From positions 4,336 through 68,335 of the IMG/VR virus record IMGVR_UViG_3300025066_000003: 64,000 bases of DNA. One strand, 5' to 3'. The first letter of the stretch is position 1; each line of letters starts with the position of its first letter. The stretch is from a virus. Lineage: Duplodnaviria; Caudoviricetes. Made by a program: the position numbers and the translations under genes. Positions 2,997-57,953 of this stretch are shown piece by piece. Below the pieces are notes generated by a model. The model did no database searches. It saw only the letters and a program-made list of their open reading frames with translations, and was not told the DNA's origin.

Positions 2997-3018
2997 TATA
3001 CTATAATACCCGTTTCAA
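2997..3018 (-). promoter_or_regulatory. Putative phage RNAP promoter, class A (TTGAAACGGGTATTATAGTATA)
   Basis: Matches copies at 15302-15323 and 28265-28286; directly upstream of the dut RBS. Confidence 0.65.
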
Positions 3019-9778: not shown

Positions 9779-10156
9779 TTACTCCTTAGAATTTATACCT
9801 AATGTAAAATAACCAGGCTCTCCCTTGGGAGCCCACTGTTTAGTCACATACATCGAACGAATCTGTTTATCATCAACCCATAGTTTGCCGTTCATTACAT
9901 CAAAGATAGCCTTTGTAAAGTTATCTATGTCAGCATTAGGACAATCGAGTTTAGTACTCTTAGGTCGTGTGATATACAGTTCAAGATCTACGTGCAGTGG
10001 GCTCTCAATCAAGGGGTAGTCGGTTCCAATAATATCATACACACATTCAGCCGCTTCCTCCCTGAATCTCTTGTATGGTCCTGTAAAGTAGGCACCATAC
10101 CGAGAGACCCTAGGGCGGCTAGCGGCGATAGGTGATATTGGGAATGTCCAATCCAT
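9779..10156 (-). CDS. RusA-like Holliday junction resolvase
   Basis: RPR..., PNADIDNFTKAIFD, WVDDKQI; sits in the T7 gp3 slot. Confidence 0.85.
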   Translation of the reverse strand: MDWTFPISPIAASRPRVSRYGAYFTGPYKRFREEAAECVYDIIGTDYPLIESPLHVDLELYITRPKSTKLDCPNADIDNFTKAIFDVMNGKLWVDDKQIRSMYVTKQWAPKGEPGYFTLGINSKE

Positions 10157-10704
10157 CAGAAGGGAAGATCATCTGCACCACCATCGGAGTCAGCTGGTAT
10201 AGCATCCTCAGGTGGAGTGCGGTCAGGTTGCTCTGCTTCAAACGTAGAACCATCGAAACCATCAGTAGCTTCGAAGCCACCGCCATCATAATCTCTTTCA
10301 TTCTTCTCAATGATTTGGATACCATTAAGGAATAGACTTAGTGAGTTATCTCTACTAATTACAATAGGAAACAACTTAAGTTTAACCTTATCCCCATTAA
10401 AGGGTAGGGCTGTTGTGGTATTAGCATTAGCATCTACACAAGGGAATGTTTTTACATTCTTCTTTACATAGAGTTTAGTCTTAGCTTTAAGGGTCATACC
10501 TTCTTCTACTTCTTTCATACCGTTTATCTTATCACAACCTAATTCTCGTTGAAGATCCTCAAGCTTCTGCTCTAGTTCTTTATCCAAGATGATAGTGATA
10601 TTATGATTCGAAGCATCAGCACCAAACTTATCGTCTGGTTTATGTAAGTGTGACCACTTTACTTCTACGGTTTCTGTTACAAATGATTCAGTCTTGTTCT
10701 TCAT
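10156..10704 (-). CDS. ssDNA-binding protein (T7 gp2.5-like)
   Basis: WSHLHKPD, SLFLNGIQII, acidic tail ending DDLPF; position in the operon. Confidence 0.8.
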   Translation of the reverse strand: MKNKTESFVTETVEVKWSHLHKPDDKFGADASNHNITIILDKELEQKLEDLQRELGCDKINGMKEVEEGMTLKAKTKLYVKKNVKTFPCVDANANTTTALPFNGDKVKLKLFPIVISRDNSLSLFLNGIQIIEKNERDYDGGGFEATDGFDGSTFEAEQPDRTPPEDAIPADSDGGADDLPF

Positions 10705-11867: not shown

Positions 11868-12346
11868 TGATTCTTCTCCTTATATTCTCTTGTTGAGTTA
11901 ATAGGATCCTGTATCCTAGCAGCAGATACCATGTCATTCTCTTTAAGTATGACACAATCAATACTCGTATACCCAAGCTGCTCAGCCACATGATATCTAT
12001 TGTTGCCTGTAAAGACAGCCATCTGTACATCCTTTGACTCCCAGTCAATGGGATGTCGATACAACCACATAGCAAAGTTCCCTTCCCAACGGTCAGTTAA
12101 TTCTTTAGTTATAGGTATGACAACCACAGGATTAATCATACCTTTCTCTTTAATATCATTCTTTAATGGATCAAAGAAGTCCTCTCCTTCGACTCCATAC
12201 TTTTCATTCTTTGTTTTCTCAACCAGAGGAAAGAAAGTCCACAGATCTTTAAGATCTAGTTGAACAACCTTTAGGTCATTCCACACCTCATACTCACTGT
12301 AGAGATTTCCTTCTTCTTTTGGTAGGATTCTTCTTCTTAAGAACAT
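11861..12346 (-). CDS. Second ParB/Srx-like domain protein
   Basis: DIKEKGMINPVVV...VFTGNNRYHVAEQLG..IDCVI. Confidence 0.65.
   Translation of the reverse strand: MFLRRRILPKEEGNLYSEYEVWNDLKVVQLDLKDLWTFFPLVEKTKNEKYGVEGEDFFDPLKNDIKEKGMINPVVVIPITKELTDRWEGNFAMWLYRHPIDWESKDVQMAVFTGNNRYHVAEQLGYTSIDCVILKENDMVSAARIQDPINSTREYKEKNQC
12315..12331 (-). promoter_or_regulatory. Putative phage RNAP promoter, class B (AGAATCCTACCAAAAGA)
   Basis: 17-mer identical to copies at 21526, 24798 and 24852. Confidence 0.65.
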
Positions 12347-12816: not shown

Positions 12817-15270
12817 TCAGGTGAATAAATAATCCGACTCAAGAACTCCTCTGATATCGAGTCCCCCTCTGGTTGGCAGCTTTGGCAACTGCAACCCGAG
12901 GTCTGTTTCGACATCCTCGCAGAACTTCTCGAGCAAGTTTTCCTTGTGCATTTCATAAAATTCTTCTCTAATAAACTCTCTTAACATTCCCATGTCTGGA
13001 GCAGGACACCCAAAGGAATCGTGCACCATTGAGAACTGATATAACCCATTAGTTAGGGCTCTATATAAAGTACAAAACATATGACTAGCATCTAAACTAT
13101 GAATCCAATTAGGAGATATAGCTTGCTCTACTGCCTTAGGGTCTATGTCTGTACTACTATGAGAAGCAAAGATTAATTCCTTACGATTAAACAAGGTAGC
13201 AAAGCTTCTTCTTTTGGTAGGTTTCTGATAAGCATGGACAACAGTAAACCCTGAGGGTACCGTGTATTTTATATGCTCGTTAAGGTTACTGACGATGTTG
13301 GCTACCTTCTTAAGATAAGCCTTACCTGCATTGGGCAACTCTAGAGATTCCTCTAGCCCTGCCTTAATTGCACGGGATAGTTCTGTTATCCCCCCACCCT
13401 GTCTATCCTTATCTAGCCAATCAAGATGCCCCTCTATCTTCACATACTTTTGTATACCATAGAAAGTAAGACCGTATGCATCACACATTGTAGATCTCTT
13501 AGTAACATCTCTATTTATATTACCATCCCAGTGGTCTAACATCTCTCCTAATATAGGTAGATCATCTTTATTTAATTCACAATACTTAGTAACCCTATTA
13601 GCGATGTGCCCATATAAATCTTTTGGTATATCATTAGGTGATACATTGGTTAAAGACCCTATCACCTCATCTCTCATGACTGCTGACCAATGTTGTGAGC
13701 CATTACATGCTCCATCTAATTGGACACCAACCTGTGTCATACCATCTGTACGACAGAGATCAAAGATAGCCGCAAGTCTTTGGAACGAGGGATTCTTTTT
13801 CTTCTTATCGCTTACCCATTCCTTATTATCATAGGGGTTATCATTAATTCTTTGTAGCATCTCCATATTATCCTCAGTCCACTTGACCCTATCATCTAAA
13901 GATACTTTATCTTGGTCAAATAGATTAGCAACATGGATCTTTGACCACCGTAATCCTTCTTCTGTTTGTACCCTTGGTTCTGCAAACATGATGAGACTCT
14001 TATCGAAGTCAGACCCTTGACATGACAGTAATTCACACGTACTGTATGCCCTACCTCTAAAGTCTAGGGTATAAGGCATGTACCAGAAGTCATGCTTCGC
14101 CATATCCTTAGCTAACATAAGCCTAATAAGTAGTCTGCATCTCTTCTGTTCTCCTTTGAACCATTCAGCCCACTCTTGTTCTCTCCGTACACACCACTTA
14201 GCCTTCTCTTCTTTAGTACCCTTACTCGGATACTCTTCATTAAAATCAAAAGAGTCGGACGAGTATGCGGGTAGGTTGGCTAACTGGGTGTTGTTATAGA
14301 ACAGAGTCTCCATAACTTCCAAGACCTTAGTGTTAACTGCCCACTCGGTATTCATCATAGCATTCAGACCATCTAACACTAACTGACTAGGCTTAGACCA
14401 TTGTTGTTTATGGCGGAAGCCAGTAAAGTAATCCGAAGAATACTTCTGTACCACTTCCTTCCGTATCCAATGGTTGTAGTAGCCCCCACTACGTTCTATA
14501 GTGTGATCTACTGGTGGTACAATCATAGGTCTATATAGTAATACCGTAGTCTCTAATAACTTATGCTTATTATGGAGATCTTTTAGTATCTCAGGATTTA
14601 ATGTAATGAATAACTTTTGTTTCCATATCTTACCCATTAAATGCCTCTGATTTATAGACTGTAAGATGTCTGAAGCCTCTGCTATCCTTATCATATGATG
14701 TCCAAAGTCTTGTCGTCTCTTTAAGGTAAAGAACTTCATGTTCCCTACCTTCTTAGCAAACGCATTACATCTCTTTGGTGTCCAGTTCTTAATAAACTTA
14801 GACTGTCTTCTCCAATCATCCTTAAACTCTTCCTTGGATTGTTGGTACGCCACTATGTTTAAGACCTCTGTTGATATAACATTGGCTAATCTCTGTGCAG
14901 TGGGCAAAGGATATGCTGAGTTCATGTATCCTATGAACTCTTCTTCGAACATTGATGACCTCAGCCACTCCCTTAAGAAACATCTGATAGTTAAATCAGC
15001 CATCTTAGAAGCACCTATGGATAACAGGGGAATCACCCATTCAGGTGTCCTGAGTCCACTACACATTTTATCTATCCACTCTTGATAGAATGGGGTAAGA
15101 TGTATTACAACAGAATCTAACAACTGTTGCTCTGGTATCCCCTCATCCGGAGCACGTTCGTACTCTCTCCAGTATTTAGTGATACCACTAGACATCATGC
15201 CCTCTTCTAGGACATTCTGCTCTAGTATTCTTTTCTGCTGTTCTTCGGGTGTTAACCTATTCCAAAGCAT
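12817..15270 (-). CDS. T7-type single-subunit RNA polymerase, copy 1 (817 aa)
   Basis: DFRGR, motif A DGACNGSQH, motif B RDVTKRSTMCDAYG, PNWIHSLDA, motif C VHDSF. Confidence 0.97.
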   Translation of the reverse strand: MLWNRLTPEEQQKRILEQNVLEEGMMSSGITKYWREYERAPDEGIPEQQLLDSVVIHLTPFYQEWIDKMCSGLRTPEWVIPLLSIGASKMADLTIRCFLREWLRSSMFEEEFIGYMNSAYPLPTAQRLANVISTEVLNIVAYQQSKEEFKDDWRRQSKFIKNWTPKRCNAFAKKVGNMKFFTLKRRQDFGHHMIRIAEASDILQSINQRHLMGKIWKQKLFITLNPEILKDLHNKHKLLETTVLLYRPMIVPPVDHTIERSGGYYNHWIRKEVVQKYSSDYFTGFRHKQQWSKPSQLVLDGLNAMMNTEWAVNTKVLEVMETLFYNNTQLANLPAYSSDSFDFNEEYPSKGTKEEKAKWCVRREQEWAEWFKGEQKRCRLLIRLMLAKDMAKHDFWYMPYTLDFRGRAYSTCELLSCQGSDFDKSLIMFAEPRVQTEEGLRWSKIHVANLFDQDKVSLDDRVKWTEDNMEMLQRINDNPYDNKEWVSDKKKKNPSFQRLAAIFDLCRTDGMTQVGVQLDGACNGSQHWSAVMRDEVIGSLTNVSPNDIPKDLYGHIANRVTKYCELNKDDLPILGEMLDHWDGNINRDVTKRSTMCDAYGLTFYGIQKYVKIEGHLDWLDKDRQGGGITELSRAIKAGLEESLELPNAGKAYLKKVANIVSNLNEHIKYTVPSGFTVVHAYQKPTKRRSFATLFNRKELIFASHSSTDIDPKAVEQAISPNWIHSLDASHMFCTLYRALTNGLYQFSMVHDSFGCPAPDMGMLREFIREEFYEMHKENLLEKFCEDVETDLGLQLPKLPTRGGLDIRGVLESDYLFT
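13210..13226 (-). promoter_or_regulatory. Putative class B promoter inside the RNAP1 gene (AGAAACCTACCAAAAGA)
   Basis: 16/17 match to the class B motif. Confidence 0.5.
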
Positions 15271-15301
15271 ACGCGGTCTCCTAAGTTAAAGTGATAAGTA
15301 G

Positions 15302-15323
15302 TATACTACTATACCCGTTTCTA
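15302..15323 (-). promoter_or_regulatory. Putative class A promoter directly upstream of RNAP1 (TAGAAACGGGTATAGTAGTATA)
   Basis: Intergenic; 20-nt identity with the copy at 28267-28286. Confidence 0.7.
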
Positions 15324-15329
15324 GGGTAG

Positions 15330-16349
15330 TTAACAGTATTCTAACGCTCTCTTCATAACAGTGATAGAATTAGATGCGTTCTTACCAAACAGGTTGTTAT
15401 CAACCCTAGAATCAGAGCTAGTCTTACGACCCTTCTTGCTTTCATTAAACTGCAGGTAATTAGTTACAGCGTTCGCTGCAATCCAAGCATTAGGTCTATT
15501 AACATTCAACTCTTGCATCTCATTATCAAATGTAGTACTCCATGTACTAATAGACGCTACTGCTCTCTTGTAAATCTTCTCATCCTCATCAGACTTAAAG
15601 TTACTAGGTAAGACAACAGTTTCTTTATTCAAATCTTGGTATACATCTAACCAGAATCTTTGGATTTGTTCTTTATCCCAATCAGTAGCCACTAGTCGGC
15701 TAACATTATCCTTAAAGAATCTTCCTGTTTCTCTAAAGAAACTCAATGCTTCTGTTGCCTGAGATAGTTTATCTTGCATATCTCCTTGGTGTGTAAACCT
15801 AAACATATTCTTTGATCCATTAGCCATAGCCATATGTAAGGTGTTAGCACAGACAACCCGTATGCTAGTAGGCAATCCAGATAGAGTCATTGAACCATCG
15901 TGTCCGTTACACAATAACATATACTGGTCAACCATATCATTTGATTGAGCCATGAATGAATCACACTTAACTAAACAATAGATTCTTCCACCATTCCTTA
16001 GTGAACCAAACGATTCAACTACGGTATCCTCTCCGCCCAAACTGTAAGCCAACTCTGCCAACTCAGCATTCTGTACTACATTATAACTAGGACTAACCCA
16101 GCCAACAACATCTCCAGTATCTTGGCGGATGTTAGCAACCTTCTTACTTGTATACGTAACATCTACTAAACCCTCAGCAGTCTTATAGGTACAGCCGATC
16201 TCACTACTAGGTACTACATTCCAATCAAGGTGTGCTTCACGCAACGCCTGTCTAGGATTGCAATCCTCATTTACTACGACACCTAAACCGTGCCACGCTT
16301 TTTCTTTTCGATACATTGCTGTATCATTTTCAAACATTTCTGAACTCAT
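15330..16349 (-). CDS. DUF932/TIGR03299-like phage/plasmid protein
   Basis: AWHGLG, YNVVQNAE, GSLRNGGR, NGHDGS, TSIRVVCANTL. Confidence 0.85.
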   Translation of the reverse strand: MSSEMFENDTAMYRKEKAWHGLGVVVNEDCNPRQALREAHLDWNVVPSSEIGCTYKTAEGLVDVTYTSKKVANIRQDTGDVVGWVSPSYNVVQNAELAELAYSLGGEDTVVESFGSLRNGGRIYCLVKCDSFMAQSNDMVDQYMLLCNGHDGSMTLSGLPTSIRVVCANTLHMAMANGSKNMFRFTHQGDMQDKLSQATEALSFFRETGRFFKDNVSRLVATDWDKEQIQRFWLDVYQDLNKETVVLPSNFKSDEDEKIYKRAVASISTWSTTFDNEMQELNVNRPNAWIAANAVTNYLQFNESKKGRKTSSDSRVDNNLFGKNASNSITVMKRALEYC

Positions 16350-16621
16350 TTGTTCTCCTTAATTTTTTCTATCATTTTTCTAACTTCTATCTTTTCATCC
16401 TCAGTAAGATTACCCAAGGCTAAGTCCCACCTTAAATCATACTCTTCCTTAGAGATATCACTAGTTCTCCTAGTGTCTCCTTTACCCGCTTGGTTATTTT
16501 TGTTATGATTAAATGGTGTCCATTTATCCTTATTAGTTTTCCACCTACCAGAAGATACGCCATCTCCCTTGTTTTTATTCAAATGTCTTTGCATATCTCT
16601 ATTGATTTCTGCTTCTTCCAT
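16346..16621 (-). CDS. Hypothetical protein
   Basis: 91-aa ORF with RBS. Confidence 0.6.
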   Translation of the reverse strand: MEEAEINRDMQRHLNKNKGDGVSSGRWKTNKDKWTPFNHNKNNQAGKGDTRRTSDISKEEYDLRWDLALGNLTEDEKIEVRKMIEKIKENK

Positions 16622-16698
16622 ATTTTTTCCTTAACATATAGCTGTCAATAACGCAGCCTTTCCAAATATAACATAAAGTCTATTCCAATATAACATTC

Positions 16699-17037
16699 TC
16701 ATACTTCATTTACCTCATAGGTTGCTTCGAAGCAACCATATCCACGATGATCGTATTCAATGTGTGATAGTTCTGCCATCCAATCACATTCATACTCTCC
16801 ATAATCATCGTCTTGTCTGTAACATCCTTGTACTCTTGTAAATATCACACTCTCAATATCTACAGGATATTTCACCACAATTTCTTGAGTTGTTAAGGAT
16901 AATCTTAGATCTTTATCAGTATATTTTCCATCGCCCCACTCATAGTACCCTATACCCTGATCTTCTACCTGAAACTCACACTCTGTCTCTACTATATCAC
17001 GGATATCATCTTCATCTACGTATTGTATGTCTATCAT
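16699..17037 (-). CDS. Hypothetical acidic protein
   Basis: 112-aa ORF with overlapping junction. Confidence 0.6.
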   Translation of the reverse strand: MIDIQYVDEDDIRDIVETECEFQVEDQGIGYYEWGDGKYTDKDLRLSLTTQEIVVKYPVDIESVIFTRVQGCYRQDDDYGEYECDWMAELSHIEYDHRGYGCFEATYEVNEV

Positions 17038-17378
17038 CCTTCACTCCTCTCAGACTTATTAAGGTTAGAACCGTACTGCTCCGCCATAGCACGTTCCTTA
17101 CCTTCACGTCCCTCACCAGACTCAAGGTAACAATCTACTGGGAACGAAGGTACGTCTAGTATTACCTTAAGATTAGATAACTGCTTCGTTACTGCCTTGT
17201 CTACAAGAGTATCTATCTTCTCATTCACATGCCGAAGAATCACACCTTCGAGTTCCTTTTGGATTGTCTCGAACTGTTTAGTTATCTCGGCATCGGATGC
17301 CAAGCGTACTATCTCCTCTATCTCCTGCTCCATCTCACTAATTACTTCACTGGTGTCTACATCTACTGATATATACAT
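17034..17378 (-). CDS. Hypothetical protein
   Basis: 114-aa ORF with TAATG junction. Confidence 0.6.
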   Translation of the reverse strand: MYISVDVDTSEVISEMEQEIEEIVRLASDAEITKQFETIQKELEGVILRHVNEKIDTLVDKAVTKQLSNLKVILDVPSFPVDCYLESGEGREGKERAMAEQYGSNLNKSERSEG

Positions 17379-17554
17379 TACTTATATTCCTTTACTTGGT
17401 AGGGTGTATCACCCTTTTTCCTCATTGAGTTAAAGTCATCAGCATCTTGCTGTGCTTGTCGTTTGAATTGGTAAATACTAGGCTTACCATCTTCTTCGAT
17501 CCACCACTTACCATCAATTATGATGCCCCATTGCTTTGGTTTATCCTTCTTCAT
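17378..17554 (-). CDS. Hypothetical 58-aa protein (absent from the ORF track)
   Basis: MKKDKPKQWGIIIDGKWWIEEDGK...; exactly fills the gap, with overlaps at both ends. Confidence 0.6.
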   Translation of the reverse strand: MKKDKPKQWGIIIDGKWWIEEDGKPSIYQFKRQAQQDADDFNSMRKKGDTPYQVKEYK

Positions 17555-17763
17555 TTTCCCATCTCCATCAATATAGCAGAGAGTGTACCTATATTAGCAT
17601 TCACCATCTCTATATGGTATCGTTCGCCCCATACTTCACCACCATGAAAGCATCGGATGCAATCATGGATAGCATTCTTAAGTCTACGATCCCGCATGTC
17701 TGCAGGTTTTGACATCAGTAACTCTAGTGCTGTGTCTATTATGTGTAAGTCTTGGCTTGTCAT
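17551..17763 (-). CDS. Hypothetical protein
   Basis: 70-aa ORF with AGGAG RBS. Confidence 0.6.
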   Translation of the reverse strand: MTSQDLHIIDTALELLMSKPADMRDRRLKNAIHDCIRCFHGGEVWGERYHIEMVNANIGTLSAILMEMGK

Positions 17764-18026
17764 GTCTTTCTCTCCTTAAATACATCATCACAAATCTCTC
17801 GGAATTGTTCTGATACCCACTGCCAGTCCAAATCATTGAACCGACCAGCAATCTCAGCCCACTCATCATCAGTAACCTGTAAGTCAGGTGTTTCTGGATC
17901 ATCAGTATAATCATTGATAGCCCAGTTAGCCTCATCACGTCCAAACCATATAACAGCAAGTTCGTTATGGGGGTTCTCCTTCAAGAACTTTACCATCTGA
18001 TCATACATCCAGTTGTTTGTAGTCAT
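17760..18026 (-). CDS. Hypothetical protein
   Basis: Start reassigned to MTTNNW behind an AAGGAG RBS. Confidence 0.55.
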   Translation of the reverse strand: MTTNNWMYDQMVKFLKENPHNELAVIWFGRDEANWAINDYTDDPETPDLQVTDDEWAEIAGRFNDLDWQWVSEQFREICDDVFKERKT

Positions 18027-18144
18027 CTTCAATCTCCTTTTCCATTTCCTCATCGCATTCGGTACAGTAATAATCATCGTCAAGGCGAACCATGAAATCA
18101 ACCGACTCCATCTCTCCGCACCTGTCGCATAGTTTATGTATCAT
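18001..18144 (-). CDS. Small zinc-finger protein (CxxC...CxxC)
   Basis: MIHKLCDRC...YCTEC. Confidence 0.55.
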   Translation of the reverse strand: MIHKLCDRCGEMESVDFMVRLDDDYYCTECDEEMEKEIEDDYKQLDV

Positions 18145-18268
18145 CTTCAACAATCTCCCAATGCTGGAGAACCACATCAAGTGCTTCTTGCTCTGCTTCT
18201 TCAAATGTTTCTGCATCTATTGTAAACTCCATCACAGATGGGTCAATAATTATTTTATAAATCATCAT
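18134..18268 (-). CDS. Hypothetical 44-aa acidic protein
   Basis: MMIYKIIID...FTIDAETFEEAEQEA; coupled junctions. Confidence 0.5.
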   Translation of the reverse strand: MMIYKIIIDPSVMEFTIDAETFEEAEQEALDVVLQHWEIVEDDT

Positions 18269-18408
18269 CCAGTTCCTTGTACTTGCATCATAGTATTAAG
18301 TTTTCTTTCGATCTCTTGTAGTTGAGTACTAAACTCACGGTTCAGTATACCCCTAGCATACATATCAAGAGCCTCACGTAGTATGATTAGTTCTTCAATC
18401 GTTAGCAT
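18265..18408 (-). CDS. Hypothetical 47-aa protein
   Basis: MLTIEELIILREALDMY...; fills the gap. Confidence 0.5.
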   Translation of the reverse strand: MLTIEELIILREALDMYARGILNREFSTQLQEIERKLNTMMQVQGTG

Positions 18409-18721
18409 CCTTTGCCTCCTGTTCACGTTTCAGTAGCCATTGTATATCAGCCCGTTCATTCTCTATTAGTTCAACGTCTTGATGATCATCTAGTTCATCG
18501 TACCTATACTCTTGGTCTTGCCATCCAGTATAGTCTATGTCATAGGGCACAGTGGTATCGTCAAGATACTTCTCTAATGCGTCTTCAGGTGAGTCAGCCT
18601 CATAGATATGCATACCTGATTCCCATATGGTACTTGTTATAGTAACAGGTACACCATAGAACTTTCTATCACTCTTAATTATTTCCTCAGGGATTACATT
18701 CCCATTCATATCATGTCGCAT
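18395..18721 (-). CDS. Hypothetical acidic protein
   Basis: 108-aa ORF with RBS. Confidence 0.6.
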   Translation of the reverse strand: MRHDMNGNVIPEEIIKSDRKFYGVPVTITSTIWESGMHIYEADSPEDALEKYLDDTTVPYDIDYTGWQDQEYRYDELDDHQDVELIENERADIQWLLKREQEAKDAND

Positions 18722-19082
18722 TGGATTCTCCTAGTCTGTTGATCCAGTATTTCTTTTCGTCAGCATGTGTCCATATGTGTCCAGCAACTCGTATTTCCCA
18801 GTACTCGTCATCTTCGGGTGGTATCCAGTAGTTAGGTGTACCATAAGCATTACCCCAAGGGTCATCAGGTGGCTCGACTTCATCAAGTGATGTCTCACCT
18901 TCACAGGTACAACACCAATCCATACTAAAGTCTTCCACACAATCCACAAACGCTAAGTCATTGTTAGGATCGAACCAAGCAGATGCCATAGATTGTACAT
19001 CACTGCTACCACACTCACTACATACCCACTGTGGTTTATAGTTACTGTAAGGGTTCATTGGATTCTGATTATTCATCTTCAT
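18711..19082 (-). CDS. Zinc-ribbon-like hypothetical protein
   Basis: CSECG...CCTCEG. Confidence 0.6.
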   Translation of the reverse strand: MKMNNQNPMNPYSNYKPQWVCSECGSSDVQSMASAWFDPNNDLAFVDCVEDFSMDWCCTCEGETSLDEVEPPDDPWGNAYGTPNYWIPPEDDEYWEIRVAGHIWTHADEKKYWINRLGESNAT

Positions 19083-19350
19083 CTCCTATAAAAGTTATAG
19101 TTACCTTCGCTACCCTTCCCCCAGAGTATTCGATATCAACAGGGTAACAGCCATCTCCATAGCCACTATTGATAAGCATACCTATACCCTCACCTAAGGG
19201 TGTTTGTACTGTCGCATCAAAGTCTAGTGTATTACAGAACTCTTGCCAGTCCTCTACTTTATAACTAGCATCGTCTCCCATGATATAACATGGGTCGCCT
19301 ACCCAGATACACCCCGCATCTACACCTATTTTATTCTTCATCTTCTTCAT
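19069..19350 (-). CDS. Conserved phage protein (DUF4241-like)
   Basis: GVDAG...DPCY...SGYGDG.YPV pattern. Confidence 0.6.
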   Translation of the reverse strand: MKKMKNKIGVDAGCIWVGDPCYIMGDDASYKVEDWQEFCNTLDFDATVQTPLGEGIGMLINSGYGDGCYPVDIEYSGGRVAKVTITFIGDEDE

Positions 19351-19537
19351 CCTTCTCTATACTTAGGTTAAAGCCGTAGTAATTACACAATGCATCAACG
19401 CTGTCTAGGTCTCCACATCCTCCATTATCCCCACCACATGCATGGTAAAAGGAAGAGGCTACGCTACGCCAGTCAATTACATCGCCATCTTTATCTAGTT
19501 CATTCTTCATTGGTTGTCCTCTCGTGCCAGTCTTCAA
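19331..19537 (-). CDS. Hypothetical protein
   Basis: 68-aa ORF in the early cluster. Confidence 0.45.
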   Translation of the reverse strand: MKTGTRGQPMKNELDKDGDVIDWRSVASSFYHACGGDNGGCGDLDSVDALCNYYGFNLSIEKDEEDEE

Positions 19538-19727
19538 ATGGCTCTATGTCAGTTTCAGCGTCACAGTTACCACACCATATGTATTCAGTGGGATAGTCTA
19601 CCCCTCCTGATACAGGTAGGTTACTGTAACCATCATCATTCACTTCGTACCCCGCTAAGTGGTACTCGATAATGTTATCTACCTCACCACATAAAGTGCA
19701 ACACATTTCAGTCGGATGTCTCATCAC
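19500..19727 (-). CDS. Zinc-ribbon-like hypothetical protein
   Basis: CTLCG...CGNCD. Confidence 0.55.
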   Translation of the reverse strand: MMRHPTEMCCTLCGEVDNIIEYHLAGYEVNDDGYSNLPVSGGVDYPTEYIWCGNCDAETDIEPFEDWHERTTNEE

Positions 19728-19926
19728 AGCTCTCCAGTTTTTCTACAAGTTCACAGTACCTATCACTATCTAAGCCTACGCATTGTTGTTCCTCATTATC
19801 AGGGTCATACATCTCGTCATCTCTATAGATTTCACAGTCCTTACAACCAACGACATCAGCCCATTCTTGAAGGGCATCGAGTAGGTTTTCACACTCATCT
19901 TTATTTAACTGTATCATCACAGCCAC
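19708..19926 (-). CDS. Hypothetical acidic protein
   Basis: 72-aa ORF. Confidence 0.55.
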   Translation of the reverse strand: MAVMIQLNKDECENLLDALQEWADVVGCKDCEIYRDDEMYDPDNEEQQCVGLDSDRYCELVEKLESCDETSD

Positions 19927-20264
19927 TCCTTTGCATCTGCTACCATACTTTCGATAGCCAAGTATACATTATGTGGCTCATTCCAACTCTCTTCTATACA
20001 ACACTTACATAAATCTATAAGTTCTTCATCAAACCCATATGCTTCTCGTAGTACTGAAGCAATCTCTACCCGTGCCTCTATAACATCTGATACCTTTATA
20101 CCTGAGGTCATTCTAGGGGTATCAAAGTGTATGAGGAAAGAATCTGGTGATACAGTAACATACATACGAACAGATTCTCCATTCGTTTCGGCAGTTATAA
20201 TACATTGACCATCTTCAGTAACTGATACGCTTCCATTGATTTCGTCTTTCATTCGATTTTCCAT
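19917..20264 (-). CDS. Hypothetical protein
   Basis: 115-aa ORF with AGGAG RBS. Confidence 0.6.
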   Translation of the reverse strand: MENRMKDEINGSVSVTEDGQCIITAETNGESVRMYVTVSPDSFLIHFDTPRMTSGIKVSDVIEARVEIASVLREAYGFDEELIDLCKCCIEESWNEPHNVYLAIESMVADAKEWL

Positions 20265-20394
20265 AACGCTTTATCTCCTGAGTTACAATAACTCGTTTAC
20301 CTGTCTGCGGATTTAGACATAACAATTCTAAATCACCATTAGATTTCGTCCAATAGTTTTCAACTATCAGACCATTGTACTTTCTTCCTATCAT
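20215..20394 (-). CDS. Hypothetical 59-aa protein (absent from the ORF track)
   Basis: MIGRKYNGLIVENYWTKSNGDLELLCLNPQTGKRVIV...; overlaps the next ORF by 50 nt. Confidence 0.4.
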   Translation of the reverse strand: MIGRKYNGLIVENYWTKSNGDLELLCLNPQTGKRVIVTQEIKRYGKSNERRNQWKRISY

Positions 20395-20429
20395 TTTATA
20401 TCCATACCTATCTCCTATTAAAGAAATTA

Positions 20430-20965
20430 AAAAACAACCTGCTTTACTAGTCGCACCGTAGTGTTACTTAGATTATATACCTGCGATGAACATGAAGTAA
20501 TTGTTACTAGCATTGCCAGTTGCTATCAGTCCTGAGTAGGGCTGTCATTATCGAAGAACATTATTGCACCCGTCTGGATGGGGCAGGTATTAAATTGTCG
20601 GGGAGCAGTAGCAGAGCCTCGGTATAGGTCTTATCTCTAATTCATTGTCTCAAGGACATTCGAGTCTTACTACTCCCCTTAGATTATTGACTCTGGACAC
20701 AAGCCACCGTGTCTATACCGTAATGAATCTTACATCATCTTCATACCCTAAGGTATCACCAAAGGCTTTGTACTCGGCAGAGTCTTAGATTGTGGGGCAG
20801 TAGTAGGGGCATCTGTCCCGACTCTATGATGCTTACCGACGGGGACTCCAACTACTACCACCCCTTAGATTGTAGAGCAGTTTTGCAACGTGCTCAGGTT
20901 TCAGGTTTTGTTCCAGACCGTTACTGGGATAGGTTACGGCTATCACTCGGATGCTTTTATACTCT
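20430..20965 (-). ncRNA. Putative array of five structured RNA domains separated by AYAAUYUAA linkers
   Basis: Linkers at 20468, 20590, 20679, 20785, 20865; each domain closed by a terminal stem next to the linker; G-U wobbles favour the minus strand; U-tract at about 20430. Confidence 0.6.
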
Positions 20966-21219
20966 GCATCACAGGTTGAGTTGATACTGTTTATACTCAC
21001 CAATAGTATCATACTGAGTTATTAGTATAATGTTATCCGCGTAATATAGGATAACCTAGGACGTACGCTAGCCTCTTATACTAATGTTTGTTGTTTTGTT
21101 ACTCTTGGTTACAACTAACCGCATCACGCCACTTGCTCCGCACTTTTCACCGTGAGATATTAGGTTTAATTAAGTGAAGCCACATGCAAACCTAAAAAGT
21201 TTGGCGTTCACTATGTAAC

Positions 21220-21729
21220 TTAGACGTTATCAATAGCAGAGAATACCTCGGCTATCTTGTCTGTCCTAAGTTCAAGCATGTTCTTACAACGAAGGTAACG
21301 ACCCTTCTCCCTAGCATTGGTAAACTTCTCAATGCTCTTATCACTCTCCATGATACTAGCGATTAGGTTTTCATCAAGTGAATCAATGAATCCCTGCTCA
21401 TCTGCTGTTACCTTTGCGTTGTCAGCCTCATGCTTCTCTGATAAATACTGAATAAATGGATTACTCATAGTCTTATCTCCTTCATACATTACCACATTAT
21501 TAAGTACATTACTTATTGTACTCTCTCTTTTGGTAGGATTCTCTTTCCACGTATGTATATGTGTACGTATCCACTGTAAAGCCTCGTCCAATTCGCACTC
21601 ATATCCCCACTCTCCAAAGCGTTTATCGCAGACTCTAAAAGAGCCGTGAGTAGGGTGTTCTACACATACCTTGTTCTTCATAAATTGGACAGACCATCCA
21701 CCTTCTTCTAGTTGTTGTCGTGCGTTCAT
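21220..21729 (-). CDS. Hypothetical protein with an in-frame internal start at 21468
   Basis: 169-aa ORF; internal GAAGGAGA RBS before MSNPFIQ. Confidence 0.6.
   Translation of the reverse strand: MNARQQLEEGGWSVQFMKNKVCVEHPTHGSFRVCDKRFGEWGYECELDEALQWIRTHIHTWKENPTKRESTISNVLNNVVMYEGDKTMSNPFIQYLSEKHEADNAKVTADEQGFIDSLDENLIASIMESDKSIEKFTNAREKGRYLRCKNMLELRTDKIAEVFSAIDNV
21526..21542 (-). promoter_or_regulatory. Putative class B promoter
   Basis: Exact 17-mer; about 45 nt upstream of the internal RBS. Confidence 0.65.
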
Positions 21730-21742
21730 CGTATTCGTTCTC

Positions 21743-23845
21743 CTATGTTATGAAGTAGTTAGCCTGTGATACCAACTCGGTATCCAAAGTACCAAACTCT
21801 GGGCATTCTACCTCGTATACTTCCGCCAATACTTCAAGCGGATTCGTTTCGATTATCTTTCTAAACACGGTAGGTACTGTTGTTACCAACAAGCCTACGA
21901 AGTTAGCATGAGTAGCAAAGCAATCATGTACTGTGCTAACGTGTGCTGTTACCTTGCTTATGTCTATCACTATGTAATGCAAGTGGCTTGCATCCATACT
22001 GTGAATGTACTGAGGTGGTGCAGATGACACAGCCTTACGCTTGTTAAGTTCTGTATCGAAGATAGTAAACTTAAGTTGCGTACTTGTCTGGTCATCAAAC
22101 AACTCACTCGCTGTAAGGTTGAACTCTATCTTAGTGTTAGGGTGGTTGCGTACTAGTACACCACTAGGTGATAGCCATTCCATACATTGGTTATCATCAT
22201 TGGCTACCTTAACACACGCTCTTAAGAAGTTAGTTACCTCTAGTGCCGATGGTGCTACTGCATACAAGGATGTTTCATAGTCCCCTGCTAAAGCGAATGA
22301 TGCATGCCATTGCTTGTCCACAGGTATATCAATCTGAGCCATCACACTGTCAGGGTTAGCACCTACTGTCCACTGTGGTTCATCCTCTGTGCCTAGATTA
22401 ACCCAATGCTTCTTACCCATGAGCCTACTTGTAATCCCTCTACGCTTGCCACCATAGCCAATGACTAGGGTTGCATTCTTTCCTACCTTTCTATCACACA
22501 GCTTATCAGTGTGTTGAGTAAAGATGTCTATGAAGTCATGGTCTCTCTCATCGTTAGCCCATGCCCTAGCATTCTCATCTGCTACATCAGTGTGGAAGTC
22601 ATACGGTTTATCACACGGTAGGACATTGGTACGCCTTGCTAAGTCCTCATCTTTCAACAGACCTGCGAACCACTGATAGTTATTACAGGTTGCATCCAGA
22701 GTTACAGGTAAGCAGGTCATCCCTGTTTCCGATATGTTCTTCGCTTCTATACACGCAGTCATACACTGGAAGGTCTTAACTTTACTGCCGAATCCTTCCC
22801 AGAATAATTCCTTGTGTCCGATTGGGTCATAGCCCACATCTAGGATTGTTTCTATGTTGCCATCCACCCAATCTACACGCTCATCGAATGATAGTTTGTC
22901 TATCTTCTTACCGTCTGCTATTGGTAGTCCACTACATTGGTTGGCTATGTGTACCCTCATCCAATACCACCCCTCTTTGGTAATTGGAATTGATTTACCA
23001 TACACCAACAGACCACGACTCATGTCGTTACCTTGTGGTGATAGGATGTCTGCTTGATACCCTACTCTACCTCTAAAGTCTATGTATGTAGGATTCCATA
23101 ACTCATGTCCTTCTAATTCCTGAGCCACAAACAACGCCATGTCATGAGCGTACTTGTTTGTTTCCCGTGCTTCCATGTACGGTTGCATAAGGAACTCAAT
23201 ACTTCTCATGGCTTCGCTATTGATACGCCACGATGTATTTTGTAAGGCGTTCAACGCATCTAATACAGGCATGGCTTTAATGGCAGACCATTTACCATTC
23301 GCTACACCCTTGCGTAGTTTACCTGTCAAGTACCCACCTGATTCTGATAGTGTGTGTTGTATAGGCGGTACTACCATAGGTCTACGGTTCAATCCGCATA
23401 GTCCCCACAATTTATATGTATCGAGCAACTCTCTGAACAGGGATGTTATGCTTACCACAGTGGTAGGTTCGCCGCCCTTAGTGGTGGTAACTCGTATTAA
23501 CCCACACTCTCTACAAGTATGCAAGATATTCCACGCTAGTAGACATCTTGTTTTCTTATCATACTCACACATATAGACAAGGCGATTGCTTATCGTACCC
23601 ACTACACCATGTGCCTGTGCTACCCCACCTTCTTCCGAGGTGTACTCAAGTAACGCACAGATAGTAACGAAGGATACACCTTCCATACCCATATCTTTCA
23701 CCGCCCTCACCCATCTAGGCGTACACTCAAAGCGGTCGAACACCTGCTCTAGTGCTTGCGTTAGTAGTGTGGAGATTGGGTTGGCATCGAATGCCGTACC
23801 CGTAACTTGGTTTTCAATAGCGAGTTGAATCTCATGCTTGTTCAT
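21743..23845 (-). CDS. T7-type single-subunit RNA polymerase, copy 2 (700 aa, short N-terminus)
   Basis: DFRGR, motif A DATCN, motif B RKVGKNATLVIGYG, YIHSMDA, motif C VHDCF. Confidence 0.93.
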   Translation of the reverse strand: MNKHEIQLAIENQVTGTAFDANPISTLLTQALEQVFDRFECTPRWVRAVKDMGMEGVSFVTICALLEYTSEEGGVAQAHGVVGTISNRLVYMCEYDKKTRCLLAWNILHTCRECGLIRVTTTKGGEPTTVVSITSLFRELLDTYKLWGLCGLNRRPMVVPPIQHTLSESGGYLTGKLRKGVANGKWSAIKAMPVLDALNALQNTSWRINSEAMRSIEFLMQPYMEARETNKYAHDMALFVAQELEGHELWNPTYIDFRGRVGYQADILSPQGNDMSRGLLVYGKSIPITKEGWYWMRVHIANQCSGLPIADGKKIDKLSFDERVDWVDGNIETILDVGYDPIGHKELFWEGFGSKVKTFQCMTACIEAKNISETGMTCLPVTLDATCNNYQWFAGLLKDEDLARRTNVLPCDKPYDFHTDVADENARAWANDERDHDFIDIFTQHTDKLCDRKVGKNATLVIGYGGKRRGITSRLMGKKHWVNLGTEDEPQWTVGANPDSVMAQIDIPVDKQWHASFALAGDYETSLYAVAPSALEVTNFLRACVKVANDDNQCMEWLSPSGVLVRNHPNTKIEFNLTASELFDDQTSTQLKFTIFDTELNKRKAVSSAPPQYIHSMDASHLHYIVIDISKVTAHVSTVHDCFATHANFVGLLVTTVPTVFRKIIETNPLEVLAEVYEVECPEFGTLDTELVSQANYFIT

Positions 23846-23924: not shown

Positions 23925-24707
23925 TTACTGACCGAACTTCTCTAACAAGTTGGCGATGCCTCGCTGTACTTGCTCTGTTGTATCGGTCGCATCTTCATGA
24001 GCAAGGTTCTGTTTGGCTAGCATATCCACCAATGTACTAGTCCTCTTGCTACATGATTCAGGCAATCCAAGGGCTGACTTCAACTGTTCCCGTGTCATCT
24101 CAGCAGGGGCTAGTGCCTCGTATCCTGTTGCCTTGCTAATCGCATCGGTCAATGGATTAGCACGATTGTCAATGACATCGTTGTAGTATGGACGAGCCAA
24201 GTATACACCTGCTTCCTTGAATGGAGCATAGAACGCATTCTTTGCTTCATTGTTGGTGTTACCTTGTGCCTTGTGTCCTGTGATTTCGTGATCTTTACTC
24301 ACCTTATCACCATCCCATACACCCATGCATTCCCAAGTCCAACCGTTATCATCCCGTGTTCGTTGGATGTTAGCACCTGTGATTGTTTCGGATGCCTTGC
24401 GTTTCTTCTTGGACTTAGGTTTCACAGGGACAGGAGAAGCATCTGCTTTCATTGCTTTCAAACTGTCCGTGGGAACACCAAGTTGTCCAAGTAATGCTAG
24501 GATAGCATCAATTTGTGTGTTGTCAGGTGTAGGTTCTGCTTCACTAGCAGGTTTCCCATTCACATTCACAGTTGCACCAAGTTCCTCTAATGCCTTACCT
24601 GCATACTTTGAGCCATTGTCTGCTCGTCTTTGTAGTTCAGCCATTGCTTTCTCTCCGCCATGTTCCTTGAGTTGTTGAGTACTCATGCTAATAAATGCTT
24701 GTGCCAT
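23925..24707 (-). CDS. Early hypothetical protein (260 aa)
   Basis: Start reassigned to MAQAFIS behind an AAAGGAG RBS. Confidence 0.7.
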   Translation of the reverse strand: MAQAFISMSTQQLKEHGGEKAMAELQRRADNGSKYAGKALEELGATVNVNGKPASEAEPTPDNTQIDAILALLGQLGVPTDSLKAMKADASPVPVKPKSKKKRKASETITGANIQRTRDDNGWTWECMGVWDGDKVSKDHEITGHKAQGNTNNEAKNAFYAPFKEAGVYLARPYYNDVIDNRANPLTDAISKATGYEALAPAEMTREQLKSALGLPESCSKRTSTLVDMLAKQNLAHEDATDTTEQVQRGIANLLEKFGQ

Positions 24708-24797
24708 AGTGGACACTCCTTTGGTGCTTTGCACCATACGTGGTTGGGTTGGGTAGTCCCATAGTTAAACCCATATGTACATACACATACATATTCT

Positions 24798-24894
24798 TCT
24801 TTTGGTAGGATTCTTATATCACATACATGTACATATGTAATCTTTGATTCCTCTTTTGGTAGGATTCTTATATCATATACATATGTGTACATGT
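24798..24894 (-). promoter_or_regulatory. Tandem pair of class B promoters in a 54-bp direct repeat
   Basis: TCTTTTGGTAGGATTCTTATATCA at 24798 and 24852; intergenic. Confidence 0.7.
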
Positions 24895-24946
24895 TAATCC
24901 TTTGATGACAAAGGACAAAGGTTCTCAAGTATACACATACATGTAT

Positions 24947-26300: not shown

Positions 26301-26322
26301 CTCCTGTTCACGTTCTTACACA

Positions 26323-28264: not shown

Positions 28265-28286
28265 CTTACTACTATACCCGTTTCTA
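28265..28286 (-). promoter_or_regulatory. Putative class A promoter after the last late gene (phiOR-like position)
   Basis: TAGAAACGGGTATAGTAGTA identical to the copy before RNAP1. Confidence 0.7.
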
Positions 28287-55400: not shown

Positions 55401-57953
55401 AAAGTTTACACTATGCGTAGACCAGACCCAGAATCCATAAGCATTGTGCCCTTCTTCTATGATACAATCTTTAATAGTACAGTTACGGGCAGCAGCACTA
55501 TACTCATCCCCTAGATAGGGTGCGTGTACAAATACAGAGAAAACCTTGAAACCGTTATTGTAGTCTCCATCATAATAATTCTCCGAGTCCTCCTGAACTC
55601 CATAGGAACCCAATGGGTGATATAACTTAAACTTACAATCACGAACTAAGATATCACCGAGAAGGTCTGAGGGGTCTTGGTCATCCGCAGAGCTTGCAGA
55701 TCCCATTCTAATAGCACCACAGAAGGGGTAGTATTCAGAACTTGTTTTGTATCCTGTGAAGGTCATATCGAAACGAAAACCCTCAACCACCACAGTGTTG
55801 CAATCCGTTAAAGAAGCAAACATTAGCCCACCATAGGTGGATATATCGTGGTCTACTATTTTTATTACTGCATTATCTCCCTGTAAACGAATGTTCTCAA
55901 GATCTGTTAAATCTACAACATTATTACCATAAACAGATGTAAAGTCTGAAAACCCAGAACGACTTATGAGATAAGTCCCACTAGGGAAGTATAAGGTTTG
56001 TCCACTACCTAAAGCTGCCGAAGCAGCGATAATAGCCGTAGTGTCATCAGTAACGCCATCTCCCACAGCACCATAGTCTTTAACATTTACTAACTCAGCA
56101 AACCTAGTAGCCAGTGTTCTTCCTGTGGTTGATCCTGTACTTGTAACGTAGCTGCTACTAGCATCACCTGTGTGAGCAATACCAAAGACAACTATATATA
56201 TCTCTGAGCTATGAGGAGGAGCTGTATCAAACGTAAGTGTAGAACCACTAATTGAATAGTCGGTTGCTTTCTGGGTAACCCCGTCGATGTTAACGATAAC
56301 ACTAGCTGAGGTTGTAGTATTAGGTACTTCTCCTAAGGTGAATTCGACAGTAGATCCATCGCCGTATCCTCCAGTAAGACCCCCTGAAATAGCGTTGTCT
56401 CCTACTCCGCCGCTGTAGAATGATTGTGGATCAGCAAATGAAGCTGAGTTCTCCCACTTAGATGTACTTTCATTATAGAAAAGAATATCATTGGCTCCTA
56501 CATCTGTAAACGAAGTATCATTTAGATCTTCCAGTGCTAAGCCATCGGTAGCATCACTAGGTAATGCCATTACCCAATCGGTTCCATCATGTCTAAGGAT
56601 TGTACCCTCAGCAGCACTACCAGAAGTATCCGCAAGATCTTCTACCTTTACACTATCGACATAGTTCATTGTTGCTGCATCCGTGCTAGCCGCAGGTTCA
56701 CCCAGAGAAGTTATTTTGTTTGAATCTAAGTCAAAGTCTCCCGTAGCTGCTGTAGCACCATCAGCTCTAAAATATGCAGACAGGTCATTAGTTGTTGGGG
56801 GTTTAGCTACATACCATCCATCATCACCTTCTGTTTTGTATCGTAAGAAATCTCCTGTTACTACTGCGATGGTAGCACTGTCCTCATCTAAGAATGGAGT
56901 AGCTGTAGTGCCATCGTCGATAACATCATATGTCATTCCTGCTTCAAGAACAGGAGGAGTTGGTGGATCAGCGGGATCAAACTCACCTAAATATACTATA
57001 CCTGAACCATAGAGATCAATAGAATCTTGAATTGTCTTACCACCAGCTGCAGACAAAGCTTTAGTAGAATCATCTGTTGTTGTACTATCAGTTAGATCTA
57101 CATAGATTCCTGTAGAATCCGCAAGGAGTCCACCAGAGGACTTTAGTTTTATATCAAGCACATTACTAGCAAACTCAAGATGATTGGAATTCAAGGTAAT
57201 CGTTAGTTCACCACTAGTGAAACTTAGAGCCGTATCACTATGGAGATCTATGGATAACGTAATACTATCACTTAAGTTATCCCCACCTGTAAGTCCATCT
57301 CCTGTGTATACATATAGATCACTAAGATCAAAAGAGGTACTATCAACATATGAAGAAGGTATCTTACCTGTAGAACCGAGAGGACAAATGCCATCAGCAG
57401 TTCCATAGAATGGGTTAAGATCTGTTGTCTTAAAGATTTTGTCGTGTATTTCTTGAGTTAGATTTAAGAGTTGCTGTGTTTCATGGTTTAGTTGAGAGGA
57501 TGTTAACCTAGAACCAGAGCTCCAGGAAACAAAAGGATTAACTCCATGTGTTTTTCTTACGATAATCAATGTATCATTGTCAGGATCAAATACAGGAAGA
57601 TTGATTGATGTCCCTGATCTATCCCATACGTAATCTGAAGCTGTGGAAGACAGGGTAATTGTCTTGGCAGTATCATCTATAGTATACATAGAACTACCAG
57701 AAGAAGAATCATTAGGTAATGACCACACTTCCCATTGTTCTGCTCCCGTAATCTTTGTTCCTCCGAGACCGTCAGGCGTGGAGGCGGCTTCGAATGTTGA
57801 TGTTGGGGTATGCTGTCGTAAGATTACTAATTGGTCTTGGTCGCTCACTGAATTATTCAGGGTTAGACTACTATATGAATAAGTAAACTGACCAGTATTG
57901 CCAGTGTACTTTACGAATGAGCCATACTCATCGTTAGTATTAATGTTTGCCAC
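52488..57953 (-). CDS. Tail fibre (T7 gp17-like N-terminus) with two tandem beta-helix modules
   Basis: [20 protein letters not shown]; two copies of [22 protein letters not shown]. Confidence 0.85.

Follow-up and report, generated by a model that had tools for sequence, protein, structure and literature searches.

The DNA analyzed here is a stretch of 64,000 bases from the IMG/VR virus record IMGVR_UViG_3300025066_000003. We call this stretch the window, and positions refer to it unless a relative is named. It encodes two T7-type RNA polymerases (RNAPs), which we term RNAP1 and RNAP2, and carries two families of short repeated motifs, class A and class B, that are candidate promoters for them. 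The window takes up most of the 68,335 bases of the record and is thus a near-whole genome; the ends of the record overlap by 55 bases, indicating a circular assembly, and the record is rated 100% complete. All long open reading frames (ORFs) in the window lie on the minus strand. Using PHROGs and Pfam, we identified genes for the scaffold protein, major capsid protein, tail tube proteins A and B, tail fibers, portal, and large terminase, as well as for a primase-helicase, DNA polymerase, 5'-3' exonuclease, dUTPase, and ribonucleotide reductase (RNR). Also encoded are a giant protein of 3804 amino acids (aa) and an internal virion protein that contains a lysozyme domain. Because its terminase is at most 40% identical to those of marine Autographiviridae of Pelagibacter, Roseobacter, cyanobacteria, and Limnohabitans, we place the phage as a deep-branching, enlarged marine podovirus of the T7 supergroup.

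The two polymerase genes account for the only two matches to the RNA_pol family (PF00940) in the genome, and both score far above the curated cutoff of 22 bits (254.7 bits for RNAP1 and 168.5 bits for RNAP2). In gene order, RNAP2 precedes RNAP1 by 6.5 kb, and the interval contains small ORFs. The two proteins are 25% identical to each other, and neither exceeds 28% identity to any RNAP of the phage collection. Both ORFs are free of stops and frameshifts. In a three-way alignment, residues D537, D812, K631, Y639, G640, H784, and H811 of T7 RNAP are kept in RNAP1 and in RNAP2, and the catalytic residues are also kept in the orthologs of RNAP1 and in orthologs of RNAP2 of 33 to 69% identity. At the N terminus, RNAP1 has only a subthreshold match to the Pfam family RPOL_N and RNAP2 has none; by alignment, RNAP2 is without two stretches of the T7 N-terminal domain. 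An AlphaFold model of RNAP2 (pLDDT of 73.5), of which the N-terminal half is partly of low confidence, has its best TM-score to the T7 RNAP-promoter complex (PDB code 1CEZ; TMq = 0.69), with the predicted match extending over the whole length of the protein.

Each motif family occurs far more often in the window than expected by chance. Class A (GAAACGGGTATAGTAGTA; consensus about ATAAnCGGGTATAGTAGTATA) has three matches at up to three mismatches, against 0.07 expected. Class B (GAATCCTACCAAAAGA; consensus about GAATCCTACCAAAA, then G) has five matches, four of them exact and one near, against 0.74 expected. Every match in either family lies on the minus strand, which is the strand of the genes, and the 4.3 kb that complete the genome beyond the window add no copy of either class. 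An earlier note on this DNA, made from its letters and ORFs, had claimed two intact T7-type RNAPs with unrelated specificity loops and two unrelated motif families. Both RNAP genes are indeed found where it had placed them, the loop sequences that it quoted are present in the two proteins and bear no likeness to each other, and the motif counts bear out the two families. The coordinates of these features are collected in Table 1.

Table 1. Polymerase genes, candidate promoters, and associated features of the window
Feature	Position	Strand	Description
RNAP1, 817 aa	12817..15270	minus	Typical Autographiviridae-type RNAP, upstream of replication genes; PF00940, 2e-75
RNAP2, 700 aa	21743..23845	minus	Additional RNAP, N-terminal domain shortened; PF00940, 3e-49
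Class A promoter candidate	15304..15321	minus	Exact; 34 nucleotides (nt) upstream of RNAP1 start codon (ATG)
Class A promoter candidate	2999..3016	minus	2 mismatches; between 5'-3' exonuclease and dUTPase genes
Class A promoter candidate	28267..28284	minus	Exact; directly after stop of 3804-aa gene
Degenerate class A-like copy	49769..49792	minus	Just before large terminase gene (terL); 75% identity to reference copy
Tandem class B promoter candidates	24798..24867 (24852-24867 and 24798-24813; 54 nt apart)	minus	Exact; upstream of 270-aa gene and RNAP2
Class B promoter candidate	21526..21541	minus	Exact; just downstream of RNAP2
Class B promoter candidate	12315..12330	minus	Exact; ~0.5 kb downstream of RNAP1, at 5' end of first replication-block gene
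Class B-like copy	13210..13225	minus	1 mismatch; inside RNAP1 coding sequence
Gene for 270-aa protein of unknown family	23925..24737	minus	Between tandem class B pair and RNAP2
ORF-free stretch, ~950 nt	20265..21220	minus	Just downstream of class B copy at 21526
Giant gene, 3804 aa	28293-39707	minus	ORF; relatives of 4001 and 4037 aa

Relatives of this phage fall into those with both polymerases and those with one. Orthologs of RNAP1 (51 to 73% identity) occur on 25 IMG/VR contigs, and an ortholog of RNAP2 lies 6 to 8 kb upstream of RNAP1 in the L005/L007/L022, L008/L009, and L023 groups. Two contigs of 65 to 67 kb from Tara Oceans assemblies, L088 and L089, share the gene order of the window, which runs from the giant gene through small early genes, a gene for a protein of ~260 aa, RNAP2, an ORF-free stretch, small genes, and a DUF932 gene to RNAP1 and the replication genes. 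Two other long relatives (G001 and G002, the latter a complete genome of 64 kb) encode the RNAP1 ortholog only. A search of IMG/VR with RNAP2 alone gave no matches, and its orthologs were reached through an alignment-based scan and a large protein database. Among the 5.8 billion proteins of that database, the RNAP2 family comprises about 10 clusters and is small and sharply set apart: nine further clusters at 39 to 72% identity are followed by a gap, beyond which come generic RNAPs at 28% identity or less.

The gene between the tandem class B pair and RNAP2 has homologs in L088 (48% identity), L005 (33%), L089 (28%), and L023 (20%), and its position between the pair and RNAP2 is constant. No Pfam family matched its 270-aa product, which is a possible cofactor of RNAP2.

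Most of the motif copies occupy positions that are also filled in the relatives. For class A, the slot directly before RNAP1 is filled only in the lineages of the window, L005, L088, L089, and L008. The copy next to the dUTPase gene heads the block of nucleotide metabolism and structural genes, and L005 has a copy at the equivalent place. The position behind the giant gene is occupied in L088 and L089 as well; in the window, this copy points into the noncoding stretch that probably holds the genome ends. The degenerate copy before terL aligns with the class A family and is its weakest member. For class B, tandem pairs with a spacing of 55 to 64 nt are found at the same position in L005, L088, L089, and L023. 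The copy downstream of RNAP2 precedes the ORF-free stretch and the small middle genes, and the same position is filled in L090, L088, L005, L008, and L089. The position downstream of RNAP1 is also occupied in L088 and L008. The fifth, inexact copy consists of the codons for KPTKRR in the specificity loop of RNAP1 itself and has no counterpart in L088 or L005; relatives encode the same peptide with other codons. Because it is made of RNAP1 coding codons and is not conserved in relatives, a function for this copy is doubtful.

The surroundings of the motifs were also inspected. Class A was considered as a sigma-70 promoter of the host and rejected, since its hexamer-like parts are only ~7 nt apart; in a consensus scan of the region from 11.5 to 28.4 kb, sigma-70-like sites were not in excess (34 versus 42.8 expected). 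Hairpins that are GC rich or perfect lie directly upstream of the class A copy that precedes RNAP1 in two relatives (L088:16525-16552 and L005:9555-9575), and none is present at this place in the window. These hairpins may act as terminators and shield RNAP1 from transcription that comes from upstream. Alternating purine-pyrimidine tracts (TGTATGT or TACATAC) precede the class B core by ~10 nt in every lineage, both at the tandem copies and at those that follow RNAP2 (24814-24840, 24868-24895, and 21545-21570 in the window, and likewise at the copies in L005, L088, L089, L023, and L090), and they are absent at the class B copies after RNAP1. A consistent hairpin around class B was unsupported; the inverted repeats there vary by lineage and reflect the alternating tracts.

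The relatives that encode a single RNAP bear on the question of which polymerase reads which motif. These genomes contain one repeated motif, TTGGGGCTACTGATAGG, in two to four copies each, all on the gene strand, and a control with the reversed pattern gave zero matches in them. One copy lies 16 nt before a tRNA-Lys gene, and another follows the RNAP gene. In an alignment with class A from the window, L088, L005, L089, and L008, the motif corresponds to it in every column and forms a single family with it, in which GGG..T..T..T is invariant. Since the RNAP1 ortholog is the only phage polymerase in those relatives, the TTGGGGCTACTGATAGG family is expected to be its promoter, and class A would be the local version of it. 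Between lineages, class A differs in the 5 bases upstream of an invariant GGGTATA (GAAAC, TAATC, TAACC, or AGGTT), and substitutions in the specificity loop of RNAP1 go along with these differences.

Class B shows a similar relationship to RNAP2. In all six of the two-RNAP lineages looked at, its homologs form one alignable family, in which T, C, A, A, and the final G are invariant and the core drifts by lineage, as RNAP2 does. No class B-like family stood out in the single-RNAP genomes. Comparison of L005 with L089 separates the behavior of the two enzymes. Their RNAP1 proteins are 78% identical and have identical specificity loops, and their class A motifs are identical; their RNAP2 proteins are 60% identical and have divergent loops, and their class B motifs differ (TTCTACCAAAGGG in L005 versus TTCTGCGAATGGG in L089). 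This contrast fits a pairing of RNAP2 with class B and of RNAP1 with class A, and it is awkward both for the reverse pairing and for RNAP1 reading both families. In one-RNAP relatives, the single family occupies the slots before the tRNA or middle genes and after RNAP1; in the window, L088, and L008, these slots are taken by class B, and the slot ahead of the late block is taken by class A in the window.

The earlier note had proposed the same pairing, with a feedback promoter before each polymerase's own gene. The comparison of relatives favors its pairing over the reverse, and a motif of the cognate class, as a candidate feedback promoter, does lie upstream of both RNAP genes, in relatives as well as in the window. 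From sequence comparison, we infer that the motifs act as promoters, and the transcription start sites, the activity of the enzymes, their temporal order, and their orthogonality are proposed on the same basis.

In our reading, which we hold with moderate confidence, this 68-kb marine podovirus probably runs its two single-subunit RNAPs, each with its own promoter family, as a relay. RNAP1 would be the ancestral, typical polymerase of the clade, and RNAP2 would be an accessory polymerase housed in the early region, which is richer in GC. The early region, including RNAP2, would be transcribed first, presumably by the host polymerase. From the tandem class B pair, RNAP2 would then boost transcription of its own operon; it would also transcribe the ORF-free stretch and the small middle genes and, in the case of this phage, the replication genes as well. 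Read-through would arrive at RNAP1, which would go on to amplify itself and to drive the dUTPase, RNR, structural, and packaging genes from class A. We can extend this relay, with considerable doubt, to a more general scheme. RNAP2, the tandem pair, and the ~260-aa cofactor might form a portable "middle transcription module" that was inserted into a one-RNAP lineage and captured its ancestral middle promoters, giving a three-stage relay (host, RNAP2, RNAP1) with two fully orthogonal T7-family enzymes; similar modules might have arisen more than once, for example, in L018, which encodes an extra RNAP of 590 aa, and in the AG-14 group of marine Autographiviridae. This broader scheme is tentative, and we regard it as possible rather than probable.

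Several points weigh against the relay. Its start sites are guessed from the conserved G. With only three to four copies of class A and four to five of class B, the relay has to assume very long operons. L005 and L089 have no class B copy after RNAP1, and class B in L023 is limited to the tandem pair; the division of labor therefore varies between lineages. The class B-like copy within the RNAP1 coding sequence may be a coincidence of Lys and Arg codons, and little can be concluded from the absence of class B in single-RNAP genomes, given how quickly the motif diverges. The assembly is circular with a 55-bp overlap and therefore does not show where the genome ends lie or which end enters first. 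Finally, one polymerase can read two unrelated promoters, as the abstract of the KP34 RNAP study (PMC6834552) describes.

The KP34 precedent (PMC6834552) also speaks for an alternative in which RNAP1 reads both class A and class B and RNAP2 has some other job, such as priming replication at the tandem sites, pulling in the long genome, or serving unrecognized promoters. The restriction of class B to the tandem pair in L023 would suit such a role. So would the resemblance of the tandem class B pair to the paired promoters phi1.1A and phi1.1B next to T7 gene 1, which constitute the primary replication origin of T7. We nevertheless consider this alternative unlikely: class B is found only in genomes with RNAP2, it changes together with the RNAP2 loop between L005 and L089 while the RNAP1 loop stays identical, and its location ahead of tRNA or ORF-free regions and of replication genes resembles that of ordinary transcription units. 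A reversed pairing, with class A read by RNAP2 and class B by RNAP1, would replace self-activation with cross-activation. It has the appeal of a simple relay, as early RNAP2 would switch on RNAP1 via the class A copy at 15304, and the earlier note had left this option open. However, relatives with the RNAP1 ortholog alone use a family homologous to class A, and the covariation between L005 and L089 runs the opposite way, which makes the reversed pairing very unlikely.

Class B could instead be something other than a promoter, such as a binding site for a regulator (e.g., the 270-aa protein), an origin, or a signal at the RNA level, with the promoters of RNAP2 located elsewhere. In some cases, a copy coincides with coding sequence or a ribosome-binding site: in L008, the GGGAGA is 6 nt upstream of an ATG, and the copy at 12315 falls within the first codons of an ORF. 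The alternating purine-pyrimidine tracts lie beside many copies. However, T7 promoters, too, often lie within coding sequence. Several features of class B also fit a promoter for a single-subunit RNAP: the length of ~16 to 20 nt, the strict co-orientation with genes, the conserved G that follows an A-rich stretch as in T7, T3, and SP6 promoters, the location of copies at operon heads and directly before noncoding or tRNA regions, and a drift by lineage in step with RNAP2. We regard a nonpromoter role for class B as quite unlikely. It is highly improbable that one of the two RNAPs is an inactive remnant or has a noncatalytic role. The missing parts of the N-terminal domain of RNAP2 and its lack of an RPOL_N match in Pfam would agree with such a state; however, neither gene has stops or frameshifts, and the modeled fold of RNAP2 matches T7 RNAP over its whole length. 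Moreover, the invariance of the catalytic residues across orthologs of 33 to 69% identity indicates purifying selection.

In the textbook view of T7-family phages, a single phage polymerase serves a single promoter family. The phage described here resembles T7 in its single-subunit RNAPs with a specificity loop and in its few, co-oriented candidate promoters of ~20 nt, in which an A/T-rich stretch is followed by G. The tandem class B pair is reminiscent of phi1.1A/B, which likewise are paired promoters near the polymerase gene, and the class A copy behind the last gene has a T7 counterpart in phiOR, the promoter that follows the last gene there. The difference lies in the number of systems: T7 serves its class II and class III promoters, both variants of a single consensus, with one phage polymerase, whereas here there are two RNAPs and two unrelated consensus sequences.

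Other phages with complex transcription programs share some of these features. N4, a podovirus with a three-polymerase program, has according to the abstract of PMC4496689 a temporal cascade in which a T7-like polymerase enables the stage that follows, and it encodes more than one T7-family polymerase. In contrast to the phage described here, N4 injects a giant virion RNAP, its RNAPII has two subunits, and the host polymerase makes late RNA; in the present phage, both RNAPs are single polypeptides, and the late stage would be assigned to a phage enzyme. We rejected an N4-like virion RNAP inside the 3804-aa protein, which has no match to PF00940, to a PHROG polymerase, or to a PDB sequence. KP34, in the abstract of PMC6834552, likewise has two unrelated promoter sequences for single-subunit RNAP in one genome. 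There, a single enzyme reads both; in the present lineages, the second family is accompanied by a second enzyme, and the two covary. Jumbo phages bear some resemblance, but their two RNAPs are multisubunit enzymes.

The earlier note had asked whether such a pair of polymerases has been described before, and the answer is that marine Autographiviridae with two RNAPs were published in 2025, without promoter analysis (PMC12361551; Commun Biol). In that study, an additional RNAP of ~650 aa was reported for 23 phages of group AG-10.1 and 17 of group AG-14. AG-10.1 phages have large genomes in which the additional RNAP lies among small unknown genes, upstream of the typical RNAP of ~800 aa and downstream of a giant gene (3274 to 5566 aa); some of the giant proteins carry RNase_H, SMC_N, or RNA_pol domains. 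By gene content, the present phage is like AG-10.1, with its 68,335 bases, its 3804-aa giant gene, and its extra 700-aa RNAP among small ORFs. The authors suggest that the different RNAPs may transcribe different genes. Their paper deals with gene content and a tree, and the word "promoter" appears nowhere in its text. In other literature searches, no phage with two single-subunit RNAPs was found to have been studied experimentally. Given that the two-RNAP gene content was published in 2025 (PMC12361551), the new part here is the promoter wiring. Alongside the intact genes, we observe two motif families at conserved positions that covary with the polymerases, and a conserved neighbor of ~260 aa.

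A lineage that splits its program between two enzymes would illustrate how the gain of a polymerase, together with the reassignment of existing promoter slots, can produce a viral transcription cascade. The lineages also provide six natural matched enzyme-promoter sets for which candidate promoters are defined (window/L090, L088, L005, L008, L089, and L023). If these are orthogonal, they could serve as components of synthetic gene circuits and as material for work on the coevolution of promoters with specificity loops. This value is tempered by the fact that the two-RNAP gene content has already been published and by the comparative nature of the evidence presented here.

Variations on the polymerase content were also noted among the relatives. 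L018, whose RNAP1 is 51% identical, encodes an extra RNAP of a third kind (L018:1974-3746; 590 aa; PF00940, 3e-22) that is ~22% identical to RNAP2. In G003, a record of 82 kb (L033 and L034), the RNAP1 ortholog is distributed over two adjacent ORFs of 620 and 259 aa, an arrangement that may reflect either a frameshift or a split polymerase.

The ORF-free stretch downstream of RNAP2 contains no tRNA and matches no Rfam family. Long runs of it are nearly identical in L090 (L090:2700-3310), and in relatives, tRNA genes fill its slot, directly behind the local candidate promoter. It is probably a conserved noncoding transcript.

The early region differs in composition from its surroundings: the GC content is 0.44 to 0.51 between 22 and 28 kb, a segment that includes RNAP2, versus 0.39 to 0.40 in the remaining genome. 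Repeated hairpin-bearing spacers also occur between 22000 and 28000 (D7, at 26316 and 26665). The giant protein has no significant PHROG function, no match to a PDB sequence, and no RNA_pol (PF00940) match. According to PMC12361551, AG-10.1 phages have no gene for a single-stranded-DNA-binding protein (SSB); in the window, the ORF at 10156-10704 has a subthreshold match to the Enc34 ssDNA-binding protein (E = 0.004, below the cutoff). Lastly, the tail fiber gene (1821 aa) contains an internal duplication (54338-54483 and 56021-56166), the copies of which are 1683 nt apart and 84% identical over 93 nt.

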